The position numbers and the translations under genes were made by a program. Below are positions 7,191 to 34,526 of a stretch of 47,301 nucleotides of DNA, in pieces. The stretch is from Clostridiaceae bacterium (lineage in GTDB: Bacteria; Bacillota; Clostridia; Saccharofermentanales; DTU023). Under the pieces are notes generated by a model. That model was not told where the DNA came from and ran no database searches. It worked only from the letters and a program-made list of their open reading frames with translations. Where the stretch lies: contig JAAYRJ010000158.1 in the NCBI GenBank assembly GCA_012518845.1, positions 1 through 47,301 on the forward strand, written 5' to 3'. Position 1 is the stretch's first letter, and the number at the start of each line of letters is the position of its first letter.

Positions 7191-8066
7191 ATGTGGGAGA
7201 CTATAAAAAAAATATATTGGAAATTTAAAAAAATAGTTGGACAAATCATAATTCTTCTTTTTATAGGTTATGGTCTTTATTGGGTTGGCAAGCATCTTAG
7301 TAATTTAGATGAACTTATTAGAATAGAATGGATAAAACTCATCTATACAATTTGTATCTTTTTGTATTTTATCCTTTTTACTAGCACCATAAGCTCTTTC
7401 ATTAGTTCAAGTTTATTACAAATATATAATCCAGCAGATACCAAGAGTCTTGAGTTGTTAAACAAGAAGAGAAAGTATTATTGGGATAGATCAATCTCTA
7501 ATCAAACCCATAAAGGACTTAACAAAAATATCGTTTTCCAACAATTAAGAAATCTTTTATTCGCTGAAAAATATGAATTAGTATCTAATAATAACAATGC
7601 TTTTATTTTTGAAAAAAGCGTTCCTTTTTATAATATTAAATTCAAGAAAAAGAATCATCGTGTCTTCTTAATTTACAGACATTTATTTAATGTTCTCATC
7701 ATAGATCGAATCCTCTCAGAAACAGAAGATTTTATTAAAAATAAAAATAAAGATAGACCAACTAGTCAAAACAGTATTATTTTTCTTACGGATATGAATA
7801 ATAAGGAAGAAATTTTGTCAGCAGGTACTGGTATTGTTAATTACCTATCTGCAACAAGTACTGCCTATCTTTTTCCCATATTCATTGACATTAATTTTGG
7901 ACATATTTTTTATCCACAGGATATTTCTTTATTACCTTGGTACAAAAGAATTGCTGTTAAATTGAATGTATACAAAACAAAAAAATCTTTAAAATCTATT
8001 ACTGAAACTCCACAAAAAGAGCTAAATAACATTCAGAATGGAAATCTCAAGTCTAAAAATACATGA
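7191..8066 (+). CDS. Hypothetical membrane protein (2 N-terminal TM helices, soluble C-terminal domain)
   Basis: 291 aa ORF with two hydrophobic segments; its stop overlaps the next start (ATGA). Confidence 0.7.
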   Translation: MWETIKKIYWKFKKIVGQIIILLFIGYGLYWVGKHLSNLDELIRIEWIKLIYTICIFLYFILFTSTISSFISSSLLQIYNPADTKSLELLNKKRKYYWDRSISNQTHKGLNKNIVFQQLRNLLFAEKYELVSNNNNAFIFEKSVPFYNIKFKKKNHRVFLIYRHLFNVLIIDRILSETEDFIKNKNKDRPTSQNSIIFLTDMNNKEEILSAGTGIVNYLSATSTAYLFPIFIDINFGHIFYPQDISLLPWYKRIAVKLNVYKTKKSLKSITETPQKELNNIQNGNLKSKNT

Positions 8067-8869
8067 ACTTAGGACCTTTAAATCTAAGATATAGTAATAG
8101 CGATGGTTACAAACTTACAGTTTATGTCGCATTTAATGAGCGTGCCTATAAGAAAAAAATTGCCGGAAAAACTTATCAAGAGCAAGTCAAACTTGGAGTA
8201 ATTGAGATGTGGTCAGGTACTTATGAACTAATACCTGAGCTAAAAGAAGCTTGTGAAAATTACCTTGATAAATACAATCCAGAAATAAAAGCTACAATAC
8301 AAAATGTGGATCAAATAAATTTAAAAGTTAAAGTCGAAGTTGATCCCTTATCTGGAGTTTATCCCCCACGTCTTATCTACTTAATGCGTATTTTTTCTAG
8401 GAGCAAGCGGCCTATTCCAATTTATATTAAAAATTCATTAATAATGCCATCACATGTTGGTAGTGGTATCTTGCGTCGTTTTTGGGGTTTCTTTCGTTAT
8501 TTTAAAATACTTAGTATAGGCTTTAATTGGTCAAAAAATTTTCCTGGCTATGCTGTTATCAATCAGCAAAAAAATCTAAAAAGTTTAAGATCAATTGCTG
8601 CTCATGAATTTGGTCATTTATTTGGCTTAGATGATGCTTATGATGCTTGGTATCGTTTTTATTATCCTGCACCTAATACAGAAAATTACATGATGCATTA
8701 CAATAAGGAAGTTCAACCTCAGGAAATTGCAATGCTTATTAATGCCCATACCAAAAATCGTCTTCAGTTTTTTCCTGTAAAATTCAATTTTAAGACAATA
8801 ATAGGAGGTCTAAAAAAAGATTCTATTTTTTACTGGAAAAAAATAAAAAATATCTTCAAAAGAACATAG
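8063..8869 (+). CDS. Metzincin-type zinc metalloprotease
   Basis: AAHEFGHLFGLDD (HExxHxxGxxD), followed by a Met-turn-like NYMM. Confidence 0.75.
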   Translation: MNLGPLNLRYSNSDGYKLTVYVAFNERAYKKKIAGKTYQEQVKLGVIEMWSGTYELIPELKEACENYLDKYNPEIKATIQNVDQINLKVKVEVDPLSGVYPPRLIYLMRIFSRSKRPIPIYIKNSLIMPSHVGSGILRRFWGFFRYFKILSIGFNWSKNFPGYAVINQQKNLKSLRSIAAHEFGHLFGLDDAYDAWYRFYYPAPNTENYMMHYNKEVQPQEIAMLINAHTKNRLQFFPVKFNFKTIIGGLKKDSIFYWKKIKNIFKRT

Positions 8870-8950: not shown

Positions 8951-9988
8951 ATGCCGATTATCACGATATCAAGAGAAGCCGGTAGTCATGGCGATGAACT
9001 TGCAGAACGTTTGGCTCTTAGAACCGGTTATCGAATTATTGATTTTGATACAATGATTGATATGTTTCTTAAGCCAATTGCTAGTGAGCATGAGAAAAAA
9101 ATGCTCGAAAGAAGCACCAAATATTTTTTTGAACCAATTAATAAAGATGAAAGAACAAATTTTAAGGCATATTTAGAAGGGGCACTGCATGAATATGCTG
9201 ACAATAATGACGCCATCTTTTTAAATGGTACTACTAGTATTTTTTTGCAAAATCATCCTCGAGCAATTCATTTACGAACAGTTGCACCAAAAAAAATTAG
9301 AAGTGAACGAATTAAAGAAGCACAAAGTTTGTATCGTGTCTATTTAGAGTATCAAGAACAGGATAAAGAATTTCACAGGACCACTATTTCATTACGGGAG
9401 CTAATGTTTTTGGAAAAATTTTTTCCTACTTCAACAATTTTAAGTTTATCTGCTGAAGGATTATTGCAAAGAATCGAAAGACAATATCGAAAACTTGCCC
9501 TCACATTATTTAATGCCGATATTTCCGATAGTCTTTACTATCATTTAGTCTTAAATACTGAAAAATTAACTTTGGACCATTGCATGAATTTAATTGATTC
9601 GTTAATAGATGATTTTTATATTCAAAAACATCTTGATAAGCAAGGAAATAGTGCCGCTGAAATGACTCAAAATTCAGATTTACCTGAATTCAAAAATGAA
9701 TCAGAATTGGAGTTCGTTCATTTACTTAATTTATACGATATTGAATGGCGTTATGAACCAAAGTCATTTCCAGTTGAATGGGATGAACAAAATCAGGTAA
9801 CAATGGCATTTAGTCCAGATTTTTATCTCCCTAAGTTTGATCTATATTTAGAATTAACTACTATGAATCAAAAATATGTATCTGCCAAGAAAAAGAAACT
9901 AGAAAAACTAAAAGAGCTATATCCAGATGTCAATGTTAAAATAATCTATAAGCGGGATTTTCTTTCTTTGATTCAGCGCTTTGATTAA
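8951..9988 (+). CDS. Cytidylate-kinase-like domain fused to a C-terminal PD-(D/E)xK-like nuclease domain
   Basis: N-terminal IITISREAGSHG and YHLVLNT motifs (cytidylate kinase-like family); C-terminal SELEF..WRYEPKSF..FSPDFYLP..YLELTT. ATG 8951 has an AGAGG RBS. Confidence 0.8.
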   Translation: MPIITISREAGSHGDELAERLALRTGYRIIDFDTMIDMFLKPIASEHEKKMLERSTKYFFEPINKDERTNFKAYLEGALHEYADNNDAIFLNGTTSIFLQNHPRAIHLRTVAPKKIRSERIKEAQSLYRVYLEYQEQDKEFHRTTISLRELMFLEKFFPTSTILSLSAEGLLQRIERQYRKLALTLFNADISDSLYYHLVLNTEKLTLDHCMNLIDSLIDDFYIQKHLDKQGNSAAEMTQNSDLPEFKNESELEFVHLLNLYDIEWRYEPKSFPVEWDEQNQVTMAFSPDFYLPKFDLYLELTTMNQKYVSAKKKKLEKLKELYPDVNVKIIYKRDFLSLIQRFD

Positions 9989-10044
9989 AAAATACTAATT
10001 TTACTTCTTGTATTCGGGTTTTTAATTATCTTTATGAGGTTTAT

Positions 10045-10557
10045 ATGTCAACAGATCATGAAATACTTTTTTCTGAAAAACAAATTCAAAAGCGGATAGC
10101 TGAGCTTGGAAAACAGATCCAATTAGACTACAAAGACTCCAAGCAGCCCCTTAATATGATTGCCATGCTGAAGGGATCATTATATTTCTTAGCAGACTTG
10201 TCTAGGGCTATTAACTTGCCTCTAAACTTTGACTTTATTGCAATAAATAAATTAAGTTCAAAATCTCATTCTATACACGTCACTAAAGATATCGGTATAG
10301 ACATTAAAAACAGTAATGTGATCGTAGTTGAGGAAATAATTCGTTCAGGTCTAACTACACATTATATGATTGAACATATTAAGAAATTCCAGCCTGCTAG
10401 TATTAAACTTGCAGCTTTATTAGTCAATCCAGATCAAATCATGATTGATTTACCACTGTCTTATACAGGATTTGAAATCGATTACACAAGGGTGATTGGT
10501 TATGGAATGGATTATAAAGAGGAACATCGTAGTCTTAAACACATTGCAAAGTTATAA
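10045..10557 (+). CDS. hpt: Hypoxanthine phosphoribosyltransferase homolog with degenerate active site
   Basis: LKGS, VIVVEEIIRSGLT and VIGYGMDY give the HPRT fold, but several conserved residues are replaced (see findings). Confidence 0.8.
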   Translation: MSTDHEILFSEKQIQKRIAELGKQIQLDYKDSKQPLNMIAMLKGSLYFLADLSRAINLPLNFDFIAINKLSSKSHSIHVTKDIGIDIKNSNVIVVEEIIRSGLTTHYMIEHIKKFQPASIKLAALLVNPDQIMIDLPLSYTGFEIDYTRVIGYGMDYKEEHRSLKHIAKL

Positions 10558-10579
10558 AATTTACATCCTATTTTTAGAT

Positions 10580-10606
10580 AAAAAAATTTGCTCGTATTCG
10601 AGCAAA
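10580..10606 (-). terminator. Intrinsic terminator of the large ncRNA
   Basis: The minus strand reads TTTGCTCG-AATA-CGAGCAAA followed by T7. The T-tract is present only on the minus strand. Confidence 0.85.
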
Positions 10607-10611
10607 CAAAA

Positions 10612-11110
10612 AAGCTTCAGCGAACCTAGCCTATTTTAATCTACTTTCATCATTAACGGAATTTTTTTATCAATCATCGAATCTAACATTTTTGGTTTAG
10701 CTTTGCTTTTACCAACGGCACTTTGATTTGCGTTTTGCATTCCAAGTGTTCTGTTGAACCCTATGCCCTATTCAATTTTTGACTTGCAGCCTTGTCTACT
10801 CCATTTTTTCCAACGGTCCATTTATTTCATTACTTTTAAATGTTAAGTCGTATCCAATCAATAAGTCGTATTATCAATATATATCTATATCATTTGCATT
10901 TAATATCTCTTCAGGGGGTACGAACAGAATCAGAACTCTGAATAAATATCTTAATGCGTCGGATTGTGACACTAATAAACGACTATTTAAATCCCCTATC
11001 TGTATTTACAAACTTTTTGTTGGATATATGTCCGTTTTCAAGTTACTGCCTTCCGATCCATTTGGTGATGAATCTCGATCAAGGTATATTTTAGAATTCC
11101 CTGAAGCTTG
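10612..11110 (-). ncRNA. Large (about 500 nt) structured non-coding RNA, ROOL-like or novel class
   Basis: Own promoter and terminator; 5' AAGCUUCAG pairs with 3' CUGAAGCUU; at least 10 internal helices, several with G-U pairs on this strand; no long minus-strand ORF. Confidence 0.8.
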
Positions 11111-11115
11111 AGTTT

Positions 11116-11143
11116 AGTATATCAGTAATTGGTTATTGGTCAA
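11116..11143 (-). promoter_or_regulatory. sigmaA promoter of the large ncRNA
   Basis: TTGACC (11143-11138)-N16-TATACT (11121-11116) with extended TG. The predicted +1 at about 11110/11109 coincides with the start of the terminal stem. Confidence 0.8.
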
Positions 11144-11241
11144 CACTTTTTGGTTTTCAGATCCACTTTTTTCTGAATTGTATAATTTCTCATCATGTTT
11201 TTGTGCAATTTTAACATAAAACAAGGGTGTGAATTAGTTTA

Positions 11242-12432
11242 TTAGTTAATATTATTCAAAACATCCTTGATTTTTTGCAAATCACCCAAAACAGGTCCTT
11301 GGAGAAGATTTTCATTTCCTCCGCCTTTGAAATTTATTTCCGTTCTAAACATTTCTATATGCTTTTTTAAATTATATTGTTCTGATCTGAGATAAAGTAG
11401 ATGTCTATTCTCACTTTGTTTTATAATAAAAGCTACAAAGCCATCTATATTTTCAGCAATTTTTGATGACACATAATTCCATTCTTTTTTGTCAAAACTA
11501 GGATTTTCCAGCACTATATTTTTTTCTAATTTATTGTTCTCTAAAATAAGTTCGATTAGCTCATTATTTTTTTGATTAATTTTTTCATTCAAATCAATTA
11601 CTTCAATTTCTTTTTTCTTGATAGCATCTGCCAATGAATCAATATTAGCTGATAACAAAGCTCCACTTTCACGCACAGTATTTTGCAGTTTTTGAAAATA
11701 TTTTAGACTTCGATTACCACAAAGAACAGTTAAACGAACTCCGCCCTTATAGCTTTCTCTATCAACAATTTTTATCGGACCTATCTCTGCAGTGGACCGA
11801 ACATGCGTACCTGCACAAGCACAAGTATCATAGCCTGGGATATGAACAATACGAATTTCGTCATCAAGATCTAATTTGCTACGATAATTCCAGTTCTTTT
11901 GACTTGCTTGATCTAAATAGTGAATTTCTATAGGGATATTTTCAAGTACCGCTTGATTTGCTTCTAATTCTAGTTTTTCAATTTGTTCCCAAGTTAAATC
12001 TCCATCAAAATCAAAGGTTGTCTCAACTTCATTAATATGAAAACCAACATTTTCATAACCATATTCTCGATTTATTATTCCAGAGACAATATGTTCGCCA
12101 CTATGTTGTTGCATTAAATCAAATCGTCTCTCAAAATTAATTTCACCTAAAATTTTTGTGTCTACTGGAATTAATTTAGAAACATGATGCCAGATTTTAC
12201 CTTGATTCCACACGGTATCTAACACAGTAATTTTTTCAGAGTTGTTTTGACCAGTACCTAAATTTTGTATATAACCCTGATCACCTGGCTGACCACCACC
12301 TAATGGATAAAAACAAGTTTCTTCAAATGCCAGCCAATGTTTATTTTTCGTAGTTTTTGAATCGATAACTTTTGTTGCAAAAGTTTTTTGATATGAATCT
12401 TTATAAAATAATTGATTAAAATTATTGACCAT
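11242..12432 (-). CDS. Alanyl-tRNA editing protein (AlaX-like with C-terminal DHHA1-like domain)
   Basis: FYPLGGGQPGDQG, Zn motifs QQHSGEH and CAGTH, C-terminal KGGG. Likely start is ATG 12432, overlapping the upstream gene. Confidence 0.88.
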   Translation of the reverse strand: MVNNFNQLFYKDSYQKTFATKVIDSKTTKNKHWLAFEETCFYPLGGGQPGDQGYIQNLGTGQNNSEKITVLDTVWNQGKIWHHVSKLIPVDTKILGEINFERRFDLMQQHSGEHIVSGIINREYGYENVGFHINEVETTFDFDGDLTWEQIEKLELEANQAVLENIPIEIHYLDQASQKNWNYRSKLDLDDEIRIVHIPGYDTCACAGTHVRSTAEIGPIKIVDRESYKGGVRLTVLCGNRSLKYFQKLQNTVRESGALLSANIDSLADAIKKKEIEVIDLNEKINQKNNELIELILENNKLEKNIVLENPSFDKKEWNYVSSKIAENIDGFVAFIIKQSENRHLLYLRSEQYNLKKHIEMFRTEINFKGGGNENLLQGPVLGDLQKIKDVLNNIN

Positions 12433-15400
12433 TTGTTTCTCCATATAATATTTTGACATAACCTGGTAAAACTGAATGTAGTTTTATGTTGTTCTTTATC
12501 TCATTATCTCCAATTAGATTACCTTTTGCATCGTATTCTAATTCCACAAAACCTTCTAAATCCATATTAGAAATTTGAGTATTAACTGTTTCATCAGAAA
12601 TATTTATTAAGACAATCACAACTTCTGAGTTTTTGCCATATGCAAAAGCACAAACCTTGTCTTGTTCTAATTTTGAATCAACTGATAAGAGATTTTTACC
12701 ATGAAGCAACTTCCCTAGCTCAAAAAAGCAAGATGCAAAATCATCCTCTAAGTCCATTTGTGATAAATTAATATCTAATAAAGTTGCGTCTTTTCCTTCT
12801 CCTAACATACTTAAACTTGAAATGATTAAATCAGCCAGGCGTAAATCATTGTTTTTTAATTGCATAGAACGAATAAATTCTGAACGTGCATTAATGCTTT
12901 TATTAATATCACGTGGGAATAATTCATATAAAGAGTTTTCGTAGTCTTCATAATCTGAGAAATTATTAATTGTTTCCGATAATGTTAAATCAGAAGCATG
13001 GAAATCAGCATTTGAGGTAAAAACATTATCTTTATATTCCATTCCATCAACAAAAATTAATTTATTTTTGATTTGGGAATATTCTGGCGTTTCCTTAAGA
13101 GTATTAACTACCCAATCAACATATGATTTTTTTTGCATATCATTAACCAAAATTCCATGCGAATCATTGATTTCAAAATAAATTTGATCGAAGACATCAT
13201 TGTACCTATTAATTGCACCATGTTCTAAGCGTAATTCTCCGTAAGTTTCTGATTCAGAACCAAAGAGATATTGCATCAAATGTTTTAGTTCAAGATTATT
13301 AGCTTGTGAATTTATTACTAGCCATGGATTAGATCGAAGTGTTTTACAATACTCCATGCTCTTAACTAAGTTATTTTGGTCTAACAATTCTATTTCATTT
13401 TCCTCTTGATAGAAAAAACTTTGACTTGTATTTGAATCAAGCCAACTTTCTGATGGATAGCGTCCATCACCTATTTTTACAAAATCCATTCTTATAATCG
13501 AGCCGCCAACTATTTTTTCATCTAATGTTGCATGGAATTCCGATAAATTATGACTAGCTGGTTTAACTGAAATATTATCTAGGTATACATTTCCTTCGCC
13601 TATAAAAGACATCTTAAAAGCTGGTATCGTGTCTTCTGTGACTGAGTTTTTTGGAACTACAATCACACCATGATATTTCTTCCAATCTCCTTCAATTGTA
13701 TCTGTAACAGGTTCTAAACCTATATTCAGATTGGCAAAGCTCAAATTTATCTCTACTTTTTGATCAGACTTTGCCCATAGCTCATAATTAAATACTCTTT
13801 CAGTATTTATTTGCTCTGATAAGGAAATATCAAGGTCTTGCAATATTGTAAAATCATTTGTTTTATCAATCTGCTTTATGTTGTCACTATATATCCCACA
13901 CAATTCATCAACAGGATTATTACTGTTAGACAAATCTATTTTTAAGGCACCCCTGCCTTGTCCAGGAGCTCTTTCATATGTTTGAACTTCTACCGCTTGG
14001 CAATCTGAGACAAACCATTCGCCCAGAAGATTTTTTGGATTTTTTTGATTAATTTCAAAAATGGGTTCTTCACTTAATTGTTCAATTTGAATTAAATCTC
14101 CATTTTGATAAACACCATTTTCTAACGCATCATTTAGTTCTACTGAGAGTCCCATAAGCGCATAGAAGACTTGCCCATTAGTATTAGTAGCAATCAATTG
14201 CCCGCTGGTAATACGTTGTATAAGATTAATCTGATTTTCATCTTGATTATCAAAATCAAGATTTGCTTGGACCCCGTCTAAAAAAATATCTCCATCTATC
14301 CAATCGGCACCTTTGTTGTCAGAATAGTAAAGCAAACCTTGATCATCTGCTAAGAGCAGTTGCTCATTACTAAGAATACAACCTGAGATAAAATTAGGAT
14401 TGAATACCAAAGTATGGTCTTTACTTGAAGTTGAATGTCTTAAAGAAATTTCTCTAAAATCTTTGTTAGCAAGACTTTTATAAACTAATCCATCATTACT
14501 AATAACGACTTGTCCTTGATTACCAGCAAATAAAATTTCTTTACCTCGAGAAGAGATCGTCTGCCAATCTGCAGTCACAGGAAATTCTAAAATTCTAAAG
14601 TTTTTACCATTATTAGTAAAAGAAGCGAAATTGTCATCTCCTACAAGGTAAAAACCAGAATCATTACTTATTACCGCATTAATATTTTTTGCATCCTCTA
14701 TTTGATCATGCAAAACTATTTCATTATCTGCAAAAACGTAGTGTCCATTTTCCCCCACCAACATATATTGCCAATTACCGTTTGAATCTCTTTTTGAAGC
14801 TGCAGATAACCAACTTATTCCAGGATTAGAAAAGTCTATACGGTCACTACTTTCTTCACTATTTTCATCATCTTGATTTTGATTATTTGTGTAAATTATT
14901 TCTGAATTTTCTGTGAGTGTAGAATGTTTTGTTTTTTCAGTTAACTTTAATTGCTCAACAGAATAAATAAAAATCCAATTTTGTTCTGTATCTAGTTCAA
15001 ATATATTACCAGCAATATCTAAAGCTAGAAAAGTTTCATTATACGGGATAATGCCTGTAATTGTTTGTCGACTTGGTACGCGAGTTAATGCTGAGTCCGA
15101 TAAAGAATTAAAAATCAAAATATTTCCACCAGAACCTCCAATTAAAATTTTACGGTTATAATTCGAAATTGTTTGCCACGTTATTTTATCTGGCATATCT
15201 GGCGGTAGTTCTGCTAAATAAAAATTATCGATTTGATCGGTCAGGTAATTTCTGACAGTACCTGTTTTCTTTACTCTCCTTTGACCATTTTCATCTATAT
15301 TTAAAACAGTCGCTTTTGCCCCCACAAAAAAGTCTTGAGGATATACACCTAATTCAGGATCATTTGGCATTCCTATTTTCATTTTACGCTGATCCCCAGA

Positions 15401-15673
15401 ATCAACAATTAAATTTTGTCTGTAGACTAAAGACTCAAATGAATTATTCTCAATAAAATTTCCGTCATTAGCATTACTTGCATTCGTACCAAATCCAAGA
15501 ATCGATTGCTCATTTACTGGTCCATTTATCTGAAAATCTGCAATATTGCTTGATTGAATATCAGTAGTTAAGTAAAAGTATAAAATAATAATAGGAATTG
15601 TTAGAGCTAATAAGCAAAGGATAAGAACAACAAGCACCCTTTTCTTCTGTCCACCTAAAATATCTCTTAGCAT
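12422..15673 (-). CDS. Large membrane-anchored extracellular protein: BNR/YCF48-like propeller plus GH51-like scaffold
   Basis: N-terminal TM helix, repeated W..I......GxxG.I..SxDG units (e.g. YSDNKGADW), then a beta-sandwich and a GH51-like barrel. Confidence 0.6.
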   Translation of the reverse strand: MLRDILGGQKKRVLVVLILCLLALTIPIIILYFYLTTDIQSSNIADFQINGPVNEQSILGFGTNASNANDGNFIENNSFESLVYRQNLIVDSGDQRKMKIGMPNDPELGVYPQDFFVGAKATVLNIDENGQRRVKKTGTVRNYLTDQIDNFYLAELPPDMPDKITWQTISNYNRKILIGGSGGNILIFNSLSDSALTRVPSRQTITGIIPYNETFLALDIAGNIFELDTEQNWIFIYSVEQLKLTEKTKHSTLTENSEIIYTNNQNQDDENSEESSDRIDFSNPGISWLSAASKRDSNGNWQYMLVGENGHYVFADNEIVLHDQIEDAKNINAVISNDSGFYLVGDDNFASFTNNGKNFRILEFPVTADWQTISSRGKEILFAGNQGQVVISNDGLVYKSLANKDFREISLRHSTSSKDHTLVFNPNFISGCILSNEQLLLADDQGLLYYSDNKGADWIDGDIFLDGVQANLDFDNQDENQINLIQRITSGQLIATNTNGQVFYALMGLSVELNDALENGVYQNGDLIQIEQLSEEPIFEINQKNPKNLLGEWFVSDCQAVEVQTYERAPGQGRGALKIDLSNSNNPVDELCGIYSDNIKQIDKTNDFTILQDLDISLSEQINTERVFNYELWAKSDQKVEINLSFANLNIGLEPVTDTIEGDWKKYHGVIVVPKNSVTEDTIPAFKMSFIGEGNVYLDNISVKPASHNLSEFHATLDEKIVGGSIIRMDFVKIGDGRYPSESWLDSNTSQSFFYQEENEIELLDQNNLVKSMEYCKTLRSNPWLVINSQANNLELKHLMQYLFGSESETYGELRLEHGAINRYNDVFDQIYFEINDSHGILVNDMQKKSYVDWVVNTLKETPEYSQIKNKLIFVDGMEYKDNVFTSNADFHASDLTLSETINNFSDYEDYENSLYELFPRDINKSINARSEFIRSMQLKNNDLRLADLIISSLSMLGEGKDATLLDINLSQMDLEDDFASCFFELGKLLHGKNLLSVDSKLEQDKVCAFAYGKNSEVVIVLINISDETVNTQISNMDLEGFVELEYDAKGNLIGDNEIKNNIKLHSVLPGYVKILYGETNGQ

Positions 15674-23031: not shown

Positions 23032-23107
23032 TGGTGGGAGTTACAGGACTTGAACCTGTGACCCCCTGCTTGTAAGGCAGGTGCTCTCCCGGCTGAGCTA
23101 AACTCCC
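23032..23107 (-). tRNA. tRNA-Val(TAC)
   Basis: 76 nt, GGGAGTT...CCCACCA, anticodon loop CTTACAA, GTTCAA T-loop. Confidence 0.97.
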
Positions 23108-23112
23108 ATTAA

Positions 23113-23188
23113 TGGTGCCTGGTGTCGGAATCGAACCAACGACACGGGGATTTTCAGTCCCCTGCTCTACCGACTGAGCTAACCAGGC
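23113..23188 (-). tRNA. tRNA-Phe(GAA)
   Basis: 76 nt, GCCTGGT...AGGCACCA, anticodon loop CTGAAAA. Confidence 0.97.
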
Positions 23189-23227
23189 TTAAAACAATAA
23201 TCGGTCACTCGGTGAAGCGACCGATTA

Positions 23228-23304
23228 TGGCGACGCAGAAGGGGCTCGAACCCTCGACCTCCAGCGTGACAGGCTGGCATTCTAACCAACTGAACTACTG
23301 CGCC
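23228..23304 (-). tRNA. tRNA-Asp(GTC)
   Basis: 77 nt, GGCGCAG...CTGCGTCGCCA, anticodon loop CTGTCAC, G discriminator. Confidence 0.97.
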
Positions 23305-34297: not shown

Positions 34298-34339
34298 ATG
34301 ATCCTCCTTCATGTACTACTTAAGAGGATTATCCTTAAG

Positions 34340-34429
34340 CAGTGAACGCGATCACCAACCGCAATATTATTATTTTCGTATTAGGGCAACGTCCCATCCC
34401 TAATCACTTAACGCTGATGATCTACTCTG
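34340..34429 (-). ncRNA. THF (tetrahydrofolate) riboswitch
   Basis: The minus strand reads CAGAGUAG...GCGUUAAGUG...GGGAUGGGACGUUGCCC...ACGAA...UUGCGG...CGCGUUCACUG, matching the THF-I aptamer, directly upstream of folT. Confidence 0.93.
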
Positions 34430-34526
34430 AATATTGCTTCACTATCATAGCATTAAAAATACTTTTGTGTCGTCAGTTTTTATTTTTGATCAAGAAATTG
34501 ATTATTTCGATAATTTTTTCGCAAAG

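Follow-up and report, generated by a model that had tools for sequence, protein, structure and literature searches.

A large structured non-coding RNA gene between hpt-like and alaX-like genes in two related genera of Saccharofermentanales

The contig JAAYRJ010000158.1 of a Clostridiaceae bacterium (assembly GCA_012518845.1, order Saccharofermentanales), analysed over its 47,301 nucleotides (nt) and referred to below as the window, raises the question of what occupies positions 10580-11143, the interval that separates an hpt-like phosphoribosyltransferase gene from a gene for an AlaX-like protein. A preliminary description made from the letters of the DNA had proposed a large ornate RNA of the minus strand, with a promoter, a terminator and a series of helices. 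We find that a large non-coding RNA is encoded there on the minus strand as a free-standing gene, with its own sigma-70 promoter and intrinsic terminator, and that this RNA almost certainly represents a real new structured family. The fuller statement, that this new family of large non-coding RNA would act in trans with a cellular partner and not as a regulator of its neighbours, we regard as evenly balanced.

The sigma-70-type promoter (TTGACC, a 16-nt spacer, TG and TATACT; 11116..11143, minus strand) has 10 of 12 matches and is the top-scoring of the eight promoter-like sites in 10000-11600, where 7.7 are expected, and the scan by itself proves nothing. Alignment of the homologs from the window's genus (g1) upholds the promoter as it had been described: TTGAC and TATACT are invariant in all 12, the spacer between them varies, and after the promoter invariance restarts exactly at the A of AAGCUUCAGGGAAUUC (+1, 11109) and ends at AGGUUCGCUGRAGCUU (10612). 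Invariant boxes, a variable spacer and conservation resuming at +1 are together the mark of a conserved RNA with a promoter in front of it. The 5' end of the RNA, AAGCUUCAG, starts at 11109, seven bases 3' of the promoter, and its 3' end CUGAAGCUU (10620-10612) is the exact complement of the 5' end (11109-11101). The edges of conservation delimit a conserved RNA proper of 498 nt (11109-10612) within a primary transcript of about 530 nt (10580..11109, minus strand); RNA-library contigs span 10634-11094 and end short of 11107. The terminator that had been read 3' of the RNA is here scored as a nine-pair stem (10607-10586) with a T run (10580..10607, minus strand); it is the sole terminator-like site in the scanned stretch and also terminates the convergent hpt-like gene. 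That gene (10045-10557, plus strand) encodes 170 amino acids with a Pribosyltran domain, the AlaX-like protein on the other side (11242-12459, minus strand) has 405 amino acids and a tRNA_SAD domain, and neither coding region overlaps the RNA gene.

The gene is single-copy in the window's genome, and homologs occur in 12/12 genomes of g1, one per genome. A DNA search of 60 relatives recovered them in all 11 other genus genomes and, outside the genus, gave chance matches of 22-34 nt only. Their length ranges from 479 to 665 nt; identity is 70-87% over the 5' 90 nt and over the 3' 190 nt, and the middle varies. The conserved ends thus compare, as DNA, with protein identities of 42-61% for AlaX and 61-75% for Hpt. 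Throughout the genus the RNA sits between hpt and alaX, but it is retained in G010, whose locus lacks alaX, and in G005, whose locus lacks hpt. Among 185,579 species genomes a pattern scan matched 11 records, all of them metagenome-assembled genomes (MAGs) titled Mageeibacillus sp., Clostridiaceae, Clostridia or Saccharofermentanales bacterium.

All three genomes of g8, the second genus of the family to carry the RNA, have diverged, GC-richer homologs. Across the other genera of the family alaX mostly runs straight into another gene; in g8, 600-1100 nt free of open reading frames (ORFs) are conserved beside alaX. They carry, on the strand opposite alaX, RNAs of 591, 612 and 662 nt that start with AAGCUCCRGGGAAAGC and end with UUCGCYGGAGC, each preceded by a TTGAC box and followed at its 3' end by a strong hairpin; for one of them (L069:791-1402) the scan gave a promoter TTGACT-17-TAAAGT and a 13-pair terminator. 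The g8 homologs were first detected by synteny and motif and afterwards by a covariance model, R2, which was built from g1 alone and matches the same g8 coordinates over their full length. Gene order is hpt, RNA and then convergent alaX in g8, and alaX, RNA and then convergent hpt in g1, the downstream gene being convergent with the RNA in both genera. An RNA gene that has switched direction across genera while its two convergent neighbours are the same is an autonomous unit and not an untranslated region.

Is the RNA structured? The minus-strand RNA of 526 nt has a minimum free energy (MFE) fold of -123.8 kcal/mol (z = -4.10), as good as none of 100 shuffled controls, and the plus strand folds less well (z = -3.11, 1 of 100 shuffles as good). 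G-U pairs in the conserved helices (U-G in 12/12 at two pairs of helix P1b, U-G or G-U at P3, P5 and P6) fit the minus strand only, which bears out the orientation that had been deduced from such pairs. The expected covariation among homologs was also present: an alignment of the 12 genus homologs made with MAFFT, without fitting to any structure, keeps 96.3% of the pairings in a core model of 57 pairs (93.8 on average after shuffling), and ten pairs of the model are changed on both sides, a count equalled by 0 of 500 shuffles; with the partners slid by 1-3 columns, pairing falls to 22-46%. Across both genera P1 and P3 are 97.8% paired overall in the unfitted alignment A7, and P1, the helix of the complementary transcript ends, shows two double changes (UA to CG in three sequences, AU to GC in two). 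For the conserved 3' arm, 92.8% of positions are paired over 15 sequences and 18 of 26 pairs are doubly changed (0/500 shuffles as high; slid controls 25-43% paired) in alignment A6, which was fitted to the structure model and leans towards it. Two further computations recover much of the core independently: RNAalifold on six sequences of subgroup B of the genus gave 126 pairs that include P1, P1b, Pa, P3, the arm and P9, and the MFE fold of one g8 RNA (-143.5 kcal/mol, z = -2.17) includes P1, P1b, Pa, P3 and the arm.

The MAFFT alignments A2, A5 and A7 shift some strands by one column (P5, P4 and P1c, and P2 and P6/P7 of the second genus); we worked instead from a hand structure on A2, the model re-alignment A6 and a per-sequence helix table. 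Shuffle tests of short helices in single sequences are mostly non-significant, and support for these helices consists of position and compensation. In the per-sequence table P1c and P9 lie at constant positions with differing complementary sequences, for example AGCUGGCAA/UUGCUAGCU and ACCGGCAA/UUGCCGGU.

The same data bear on whether the interval could encode a small protein through an mRNA, or be AT-rich spacer DNA that looks structured by chance. An ORF of 34 amino acids exists on the RNA strand, and one of 110 amino acids in a 117-codon open stretch on the other. Among the 15 homologs, however, the longest ORFs of both strands differ in place and sequence and none is conserved, helix changes are compensatory and the promoter is conserved; we find both alternatives scarcely credible.

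In our model of the architecture, the two ends of the RNA pair along an extended, interrupted closing stem (P1, P1b, P1c and P2) that opens on a three-way junction lined by an A-rich strand. One branch of the junction (P3 to P9) bears a species-variable central domain, and the other is a conserved arm of 110 nt (P4 to P7b) with an invariant unpaired GUAAAA. All coordinates that follow are on the minus strand. P1 joins AAGCUUCAG (11101..11109) to CUGAAGCUU (10612..10620), is paired in 12/12 genus sequences and carries the two compensatory changes relative to the second genus. After a conserved G opposite G, P1b pairs GAAUU (11095..11099) with GGUUC (10622..10626); GAA/UUC is kept in 15/15 sequences and the two U-G pairs in 12/15. 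P1c pairs UUGAUC (11077..11082) with GAUUAA (10636..10641), and the per-sequence table gives UUGAUG/CGUCAA, UUGAUUA/UAAUCAA and UUGAUCG/CGAUCAA in other species. P2 (CGGAA, 11051..11055, with UUCCG, 10657..10661) is 95% paired in the genus alignment of 12 sequences, and its position is taken in the second genus by UGAG/CUCA or GAG/CUC. P3 joins GCAGU (11045..11049) to GCUGC (10786..10790), is paired in 15/15 sequences and has a last pair that is UA in seven, CG in five and UG in three; P3b lies beyond it.

P9 (UAUCCAA, 11020..11026, with UUGGAUA, 10851..10857) closes the variable central domain (10858..11019), whose structure is here a prediction taken from the MFE fold only. It is one of the long-range helices of the preliminary description that sequence comparison supports: other complementary sequences stand at the same place in other species, with helices of 8-12 bp and different sequence in the six subgroup-B species. 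The conserved 3' arm with P4, P5, P5a, P6, P7 and P7b occupies 10670..10782 (the model R3, described below, matches 10649-10792 at 116 bits), and GUAAAA (10707..10712) lies unpaired between P7 and P6 in 15/15 sequences. P7b is the hairpin CACUU/AAGUG of the earlier reading, retained here on the strength of a variable pair (CG 3, UA 5, AU 2). Its hairpin GAUUCAU/AUGGAUC (Pa, 11055..11074) is plausible: a hairpin occurs there in all 15 RNAs, but the sequence differs; it is capped by GAAA in eight of the 15 (the six of subgroup B and two of the three of the second genus).

Other helices fared worse. For AACGGA/UCCGUU the G-C pair is present in 3/12 sequences, UUAACAUUU/AAAUGUUAG is 42% paired, and two species in which UUGAAU is changed lose the local hairpin UUGAAU/GUUCAA while retaining P5 by a matching change. 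UUGGU/ACCAA is among four helices that the alignment test left unsupported; jointly these are 72.7% paired, exactly what shuffling gives on average (72.7, with 302 of 500 shuffles reaching this value), and their bases pair better in P2, P5a, P5, P6 and P7. Roughly one third of the helices first proposed are, judged by sequence comparison, probably wrong. The two long central arms of that proposal fall in the stretch that varies in length and sequence, and one of them is present in the predicted MFE fold.

Two peculiarities were seen in the homolog of the closest relative, G002 (L002:1551-2108). Both are insertions relative to the RNA of the window and lie in the 3' tail: roughly 30 nt are added to the P7-P6 loop, and some 25 nt from the region of the P1c 3' strand are directly duplicated (AAUGAUGAGAGAAGAUCAU twice).

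Is the gene expressed? The DNA runs that contain the stretch are labelled as biogas fermenter, anaerobic digester and bioreactor metagenomes, some of which may be the source of the assembly, and the 'biogas-reactor' label comes from run and MAG titles only; six RNA runs also contain the stretch. Our evidence on expression consists of four metatranscriptome runs from four studies, examined over 9900-12000, and other runs were not used. In the runs X9 and X13, 277 and 218 contigs are stacked on 10610-11106, with a summed word depth on the RNA of 8e4-3.1e5 (X9) and 3e3-3.7e5 (X13), sums to which close strains may contribute and from which the level can be judged only poorly. The hpt contig has a depth of 10.2 in X9 and 571 in X13, and alaX one of 0-3. 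Run X15 contributes one contig (10653-11094, depth 36) and X18 one contig (10634-11092, depth 19), with the neighbours uncovered. Depth is zero at 11107-11248 in all four runs, consistent with a start near 11109; uncovered parts of the window (alaX, 11107-11250) were not read as a sign that they are silent. Within each run, the contrast points to an RNA that is discrete and very abundant.

These observations also bear on whether the RNA serves hpt or alaX in cis or as an antisense element, be it a long untranslated region, a leader or a source of transcription interference. The RNA always lies between these two genes, and in two runs one RNA-library contig spans from hpt into the 3' end of the RNA, as such an element would allow. 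Against this, the gene has its own conserved promoter and terminator and no coding overlap, its orientation is flipped between the genera with the structure kept, it persists without alaX in G010 or without hpt in G005, and its contig depth lies far above that of hpt and alaX in the same runs, although contig depth cannot strictly rank genes. Since in either genus the gene that follows the RNA runs towards it, and since the RNA gene has reversed its direction between these two neighbours, we read the RNA as not cis-acting, and consider a cis role very improbable.

Does the RNA belong to a known family? At gathering scores, the 4227 models of Rfam 15 matched nothing on the RNA, and in the window hit only a riboswitch and three tRNAs elsewhere. 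At E<=10, a 761-nt segment gave six chance matches to snoRNA or sRNA models (13-22 bits), none spanning the RNA. On the g8 loci the RNA was likewise unmatched, and the only two hits at E<=1 (27-29 bits, well short of their gathering scores) fall outside it. The models for ROOL (RF03087, gathering score 99.1 bits), OLE (RF01071, 50 bits) and raiA (RF03072, 101.3 bits) each found nothing at E<=1 in the three carrier genomes searched, and the control genomes for OLE were without OLE either; GOLLD, covered through the all-family Rfam scans only, gave no match. PMC12286853 states that a GOLLD profile is included in Rfam. RNase P (274 bits at G000:C169, 1246-1589) and the large SRP RNA (at G000:C70) were located at other loci in 5/5 genomes and tmRNA, above cut-off, in 4/5. 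Weak 6S-like matches also lie elsewhere in 4/5 genomes (31.8-37.4 bits against a cut-off of 46.4; none in G009). The early view that the RNA is none of these four holds. The 6S-like match in the window's genome, at G000:C211:7623-7794 (minus strand), scores 37.4 bits, and the 6S RNA of the genus may be divergent.

The suggestion of a compact ROOL-like RNA is not sustained, given the failure of RF03087. Both are bacterial non-coding RNAs, of about 500-600 nt, with many helices, in Bacillota and of unknown function; the present RNA differs in lacking a model match, in its unrelated helices and in a far narrower distribution. ROOL is frequently found near tRNA genes or in prophages, whereas the present RNA is flanked by hpt-like and AlaX-like genes in both genera, and not by tRNAs or a prophage; the nearest tRNA genes in the window form a cluster of three (23035-23304, minus strand, 67-73 bits), 12 kb from the RNA. 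OLE, a ribonucleoprotein (RNP) scaffold with an adjacent gene for an OLE-associated membrane protein, is like it a large, highly conserved and abundant RNA of anaerobic Bacillota, but the present RNA occurs in two genera only and has no OLE match; its flanks are hpt-like and AlaX-like, and no search aimed at the OapA family was made. With raiA it shares great abundance, structure, occurrence in Clostridia and an unknown function, but raiA measures about 200 nt, occurs in thousands of species and has no model match here. The abundance of raiA is comparable to that of rRNA and tRNA, according to PMC12968392. The likeness to 6S and Ms1 lies in an abundant, stable, trans-acting RNA from a free-standing gene with its 5' and 3' ends in a long closing stem; compared with 6S, the present RNA is more than twice as long and has a three-way junction where 6S is a single rod interrupted by a central bubble.

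A strongly diverged member of ROOL, GOLLD, OLE, raiA, 6S, RNase P, tmRNA or SRP RNA would share size and general ornateness, which is all that speaks for it, and covariance models can miss very divergent AT-rich members. No Rfam family matches in either genus, however, and RNase P, SRP RNA and tmRNA are located elsewhere; this explanation is largely refuted, and we give it very little weight. A literature search, supplementary tables aside, found no description of the RNA. By these sequence comparisons, the family is without detectable relation to any curated family, and family, fold and clade appear to be new; large ornate bacterial RNAs of unknown function are as a phenomenon already known. 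The proposal that this is a new class of large RNA, set among housekeeping genes, is thus upheld by the promoter and terminator, the compensation across two genera, the abundance, the absence of a match among the Rfam 15 families and the hpt-like and AlaX-like flanks.

How far does the family reach? R3, a covariance model from both genera, found the RNA at E<=1 in 12/12 genomes of g1, in 3/3 of g8 and in 0/50 of eight other genera of the family, and at E<=0.1 in 0/143, 0/39 and 0/54 genomes of three further families of the order (f2, f3 and f4), that is in 0/236 outside its own family, and in 0/150 sampled genomes of the class. These negatives hold for the genomes searched, many of which are incomplete MAGs, and runs on more than 40 genomes use stricter filters. 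The covariance model of the 5' part, R1, found g1 only, and with an nhmmer profile made from the genus alignment no convincing match appeared at the alaX loci of other genera. Used as a DNA query against 301 genomes of the order, the second-genus RNA found its own genus and one 24-nt match (G204), which looks like coding sequence and was rejected as a homolog. A metagenome pattern scan gave 24 loci, two of them genuine (L092 and L095, near-identical copies); the other 22, without promoter and 3' motif, were dismissed as GC-rich chance matches. Six contigs (L084, L086, L088, L102, L104 and L105) share a nearly identical GC-rich stretch of 135 nt, a chance pattern match unrelated to the RNA; the stretch may belong to a coding sequence or repeat that is conserved in some soil organism. 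Blastn against 50,697 phage records and 72,556 plasmids gave 0 matches, as did the pattern scan of viral contigs.

What might the RNA do? By analogy with 6S, Ms1 and OLE, we suggest that it is a stable structural RNA working in trans, as an RNP scaffold or a sequestering RNA, and no regulator of its neighbours. The junction, the GUAAAA and the A-rich strand would form the binding surface for a cellular partner. We give this partner-binding mechanism about the same chance of being right as of being wrong.

A different reading of these features is an RNA-only, putatively homo-oligomeric particle like ROOL, GOLLD and OLE, in which the conserved unpaired nucleotides would contact other RNA molecules. 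Size, many helices, the GUAAAA, the A-rich junction strand, the GAAA-capped hairpin and the abundance all resemble the ornate RNAs, and PMC12286853 describes the ornate RNAs as forming homo-oligomers. This RNA has, however, no sequence or model similarity to those families and no phage or plasmid link, and the palindromes AAGCUU and GAAUUC of this genome are lost in the second genus; such a particle seems unlikely. Large ribozymes show conserved unpaired nucleotides in a covarying scaffold with peripheral insertions, and here too unpaired nucleotides are strongly conserved in a covarying scaffold that tolerates peripheral insertions; on this reading the three-way junction and the invariant nucleotides would make up the active site. 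A large ribozyme is nonetheless improbable, in view of the lack of a match to any known ribozyme family, of a substrate hint, a self-cleavage site or processed ends, and of the narrow distribution. Taken broadly, a hyper-abundant RNA class with an activity of its own (a new ribozyme, or an RNA-only quaternary assembly unrelated to ROOL, GOLLD and OLE) and a recent origin in one small clade of uncultured Clostridia from biogas reactors is an idea that we hold tentatively and consider rather doubtful.

Four readings tied to single motifs were abandoned, as none of the motifs is kept in the second genus: a tRNA-like or T-loop element (GGUUCG), anti-Shine-Dalgarno mimicry (AUCACC), a CsrA-type GGA sponge and palindrome-mediated dimerisation.

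Several points weigh against the preferred reading, that of a new structured family whose RNA would act in trans on a cellular partner. The mechanism is argued by analogy. The restriction to two genera is unusual for a core housekeeping RNP. The contig evidence for expression is without strand or exact ends, and its summed depths carry the reservation already made. The R2 scores that connect g8 to g1 are modest (21-25 bits, E 0.03-0.12). As to the fold, the central domain depends on a single predicted MFE structure; P1, P1b and three P2 pairs are invariant inside the genus and uninformative there; P1c and P2 are short and often equalled by single-sequence shuffles; and the 15 sequences are related, so that independent compensatory events are fewer than the counted cells.

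The surroundings of the gene offer some further observations. The neighbours at 12422-15673 (minus strand, 1083 amino acids) and at 8063-8869 (plus strand, 268 amino acids) had no Pfam match at E<=0.001; the shorter protein contains the string HEFGH, which we take to resemble a zinc-protease motif, and Cytidylate_kin2 was a further Pfam match among the neighbouring proteins. The gene for the protein of 1083 amino acids stays upstream of alaX in several genus members, and adjoins the RNA in G010, where alaX is missing. In-frame stops were seen in the alaX matches of G004 (C18:11579-12778, one TGA and one TAG) and G011 (C2:7900-9132, one TAA); they may reflect gene decay or assembly errors, and the RNA beside each of them is intact. 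The riboswitch hit in the window is a tetrahydrofolate (THF) riboswitch at 34338-34431 (minus strand; 74.7 bits against a gathering score of 36). Matches to the group-II-D1D4-1 intron domain above cut-off lie at G000:C3:6344-6424 and G009:C1:32319-32398 (both minus strand; 47 and 46 bits).

New large structured bacterial RNAs are rare, and RNase P, tmRNA, OLE, GOLLD, ROOL and raiA each opened a line of research. The compact gene, the core backed by covariation and the high abundance make the present RNA directly open to biochemical and structural work, for which two divergent versions, one AT-rich and one GC-richer, are at hand. That metatranscriptomes of engineered anaerobic communities contain abundant RNAs unnamed in any library is a further implication. 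For the family itself, restriction to two genera points to the recent birth, or the rapid divergence, of a complex RNA.

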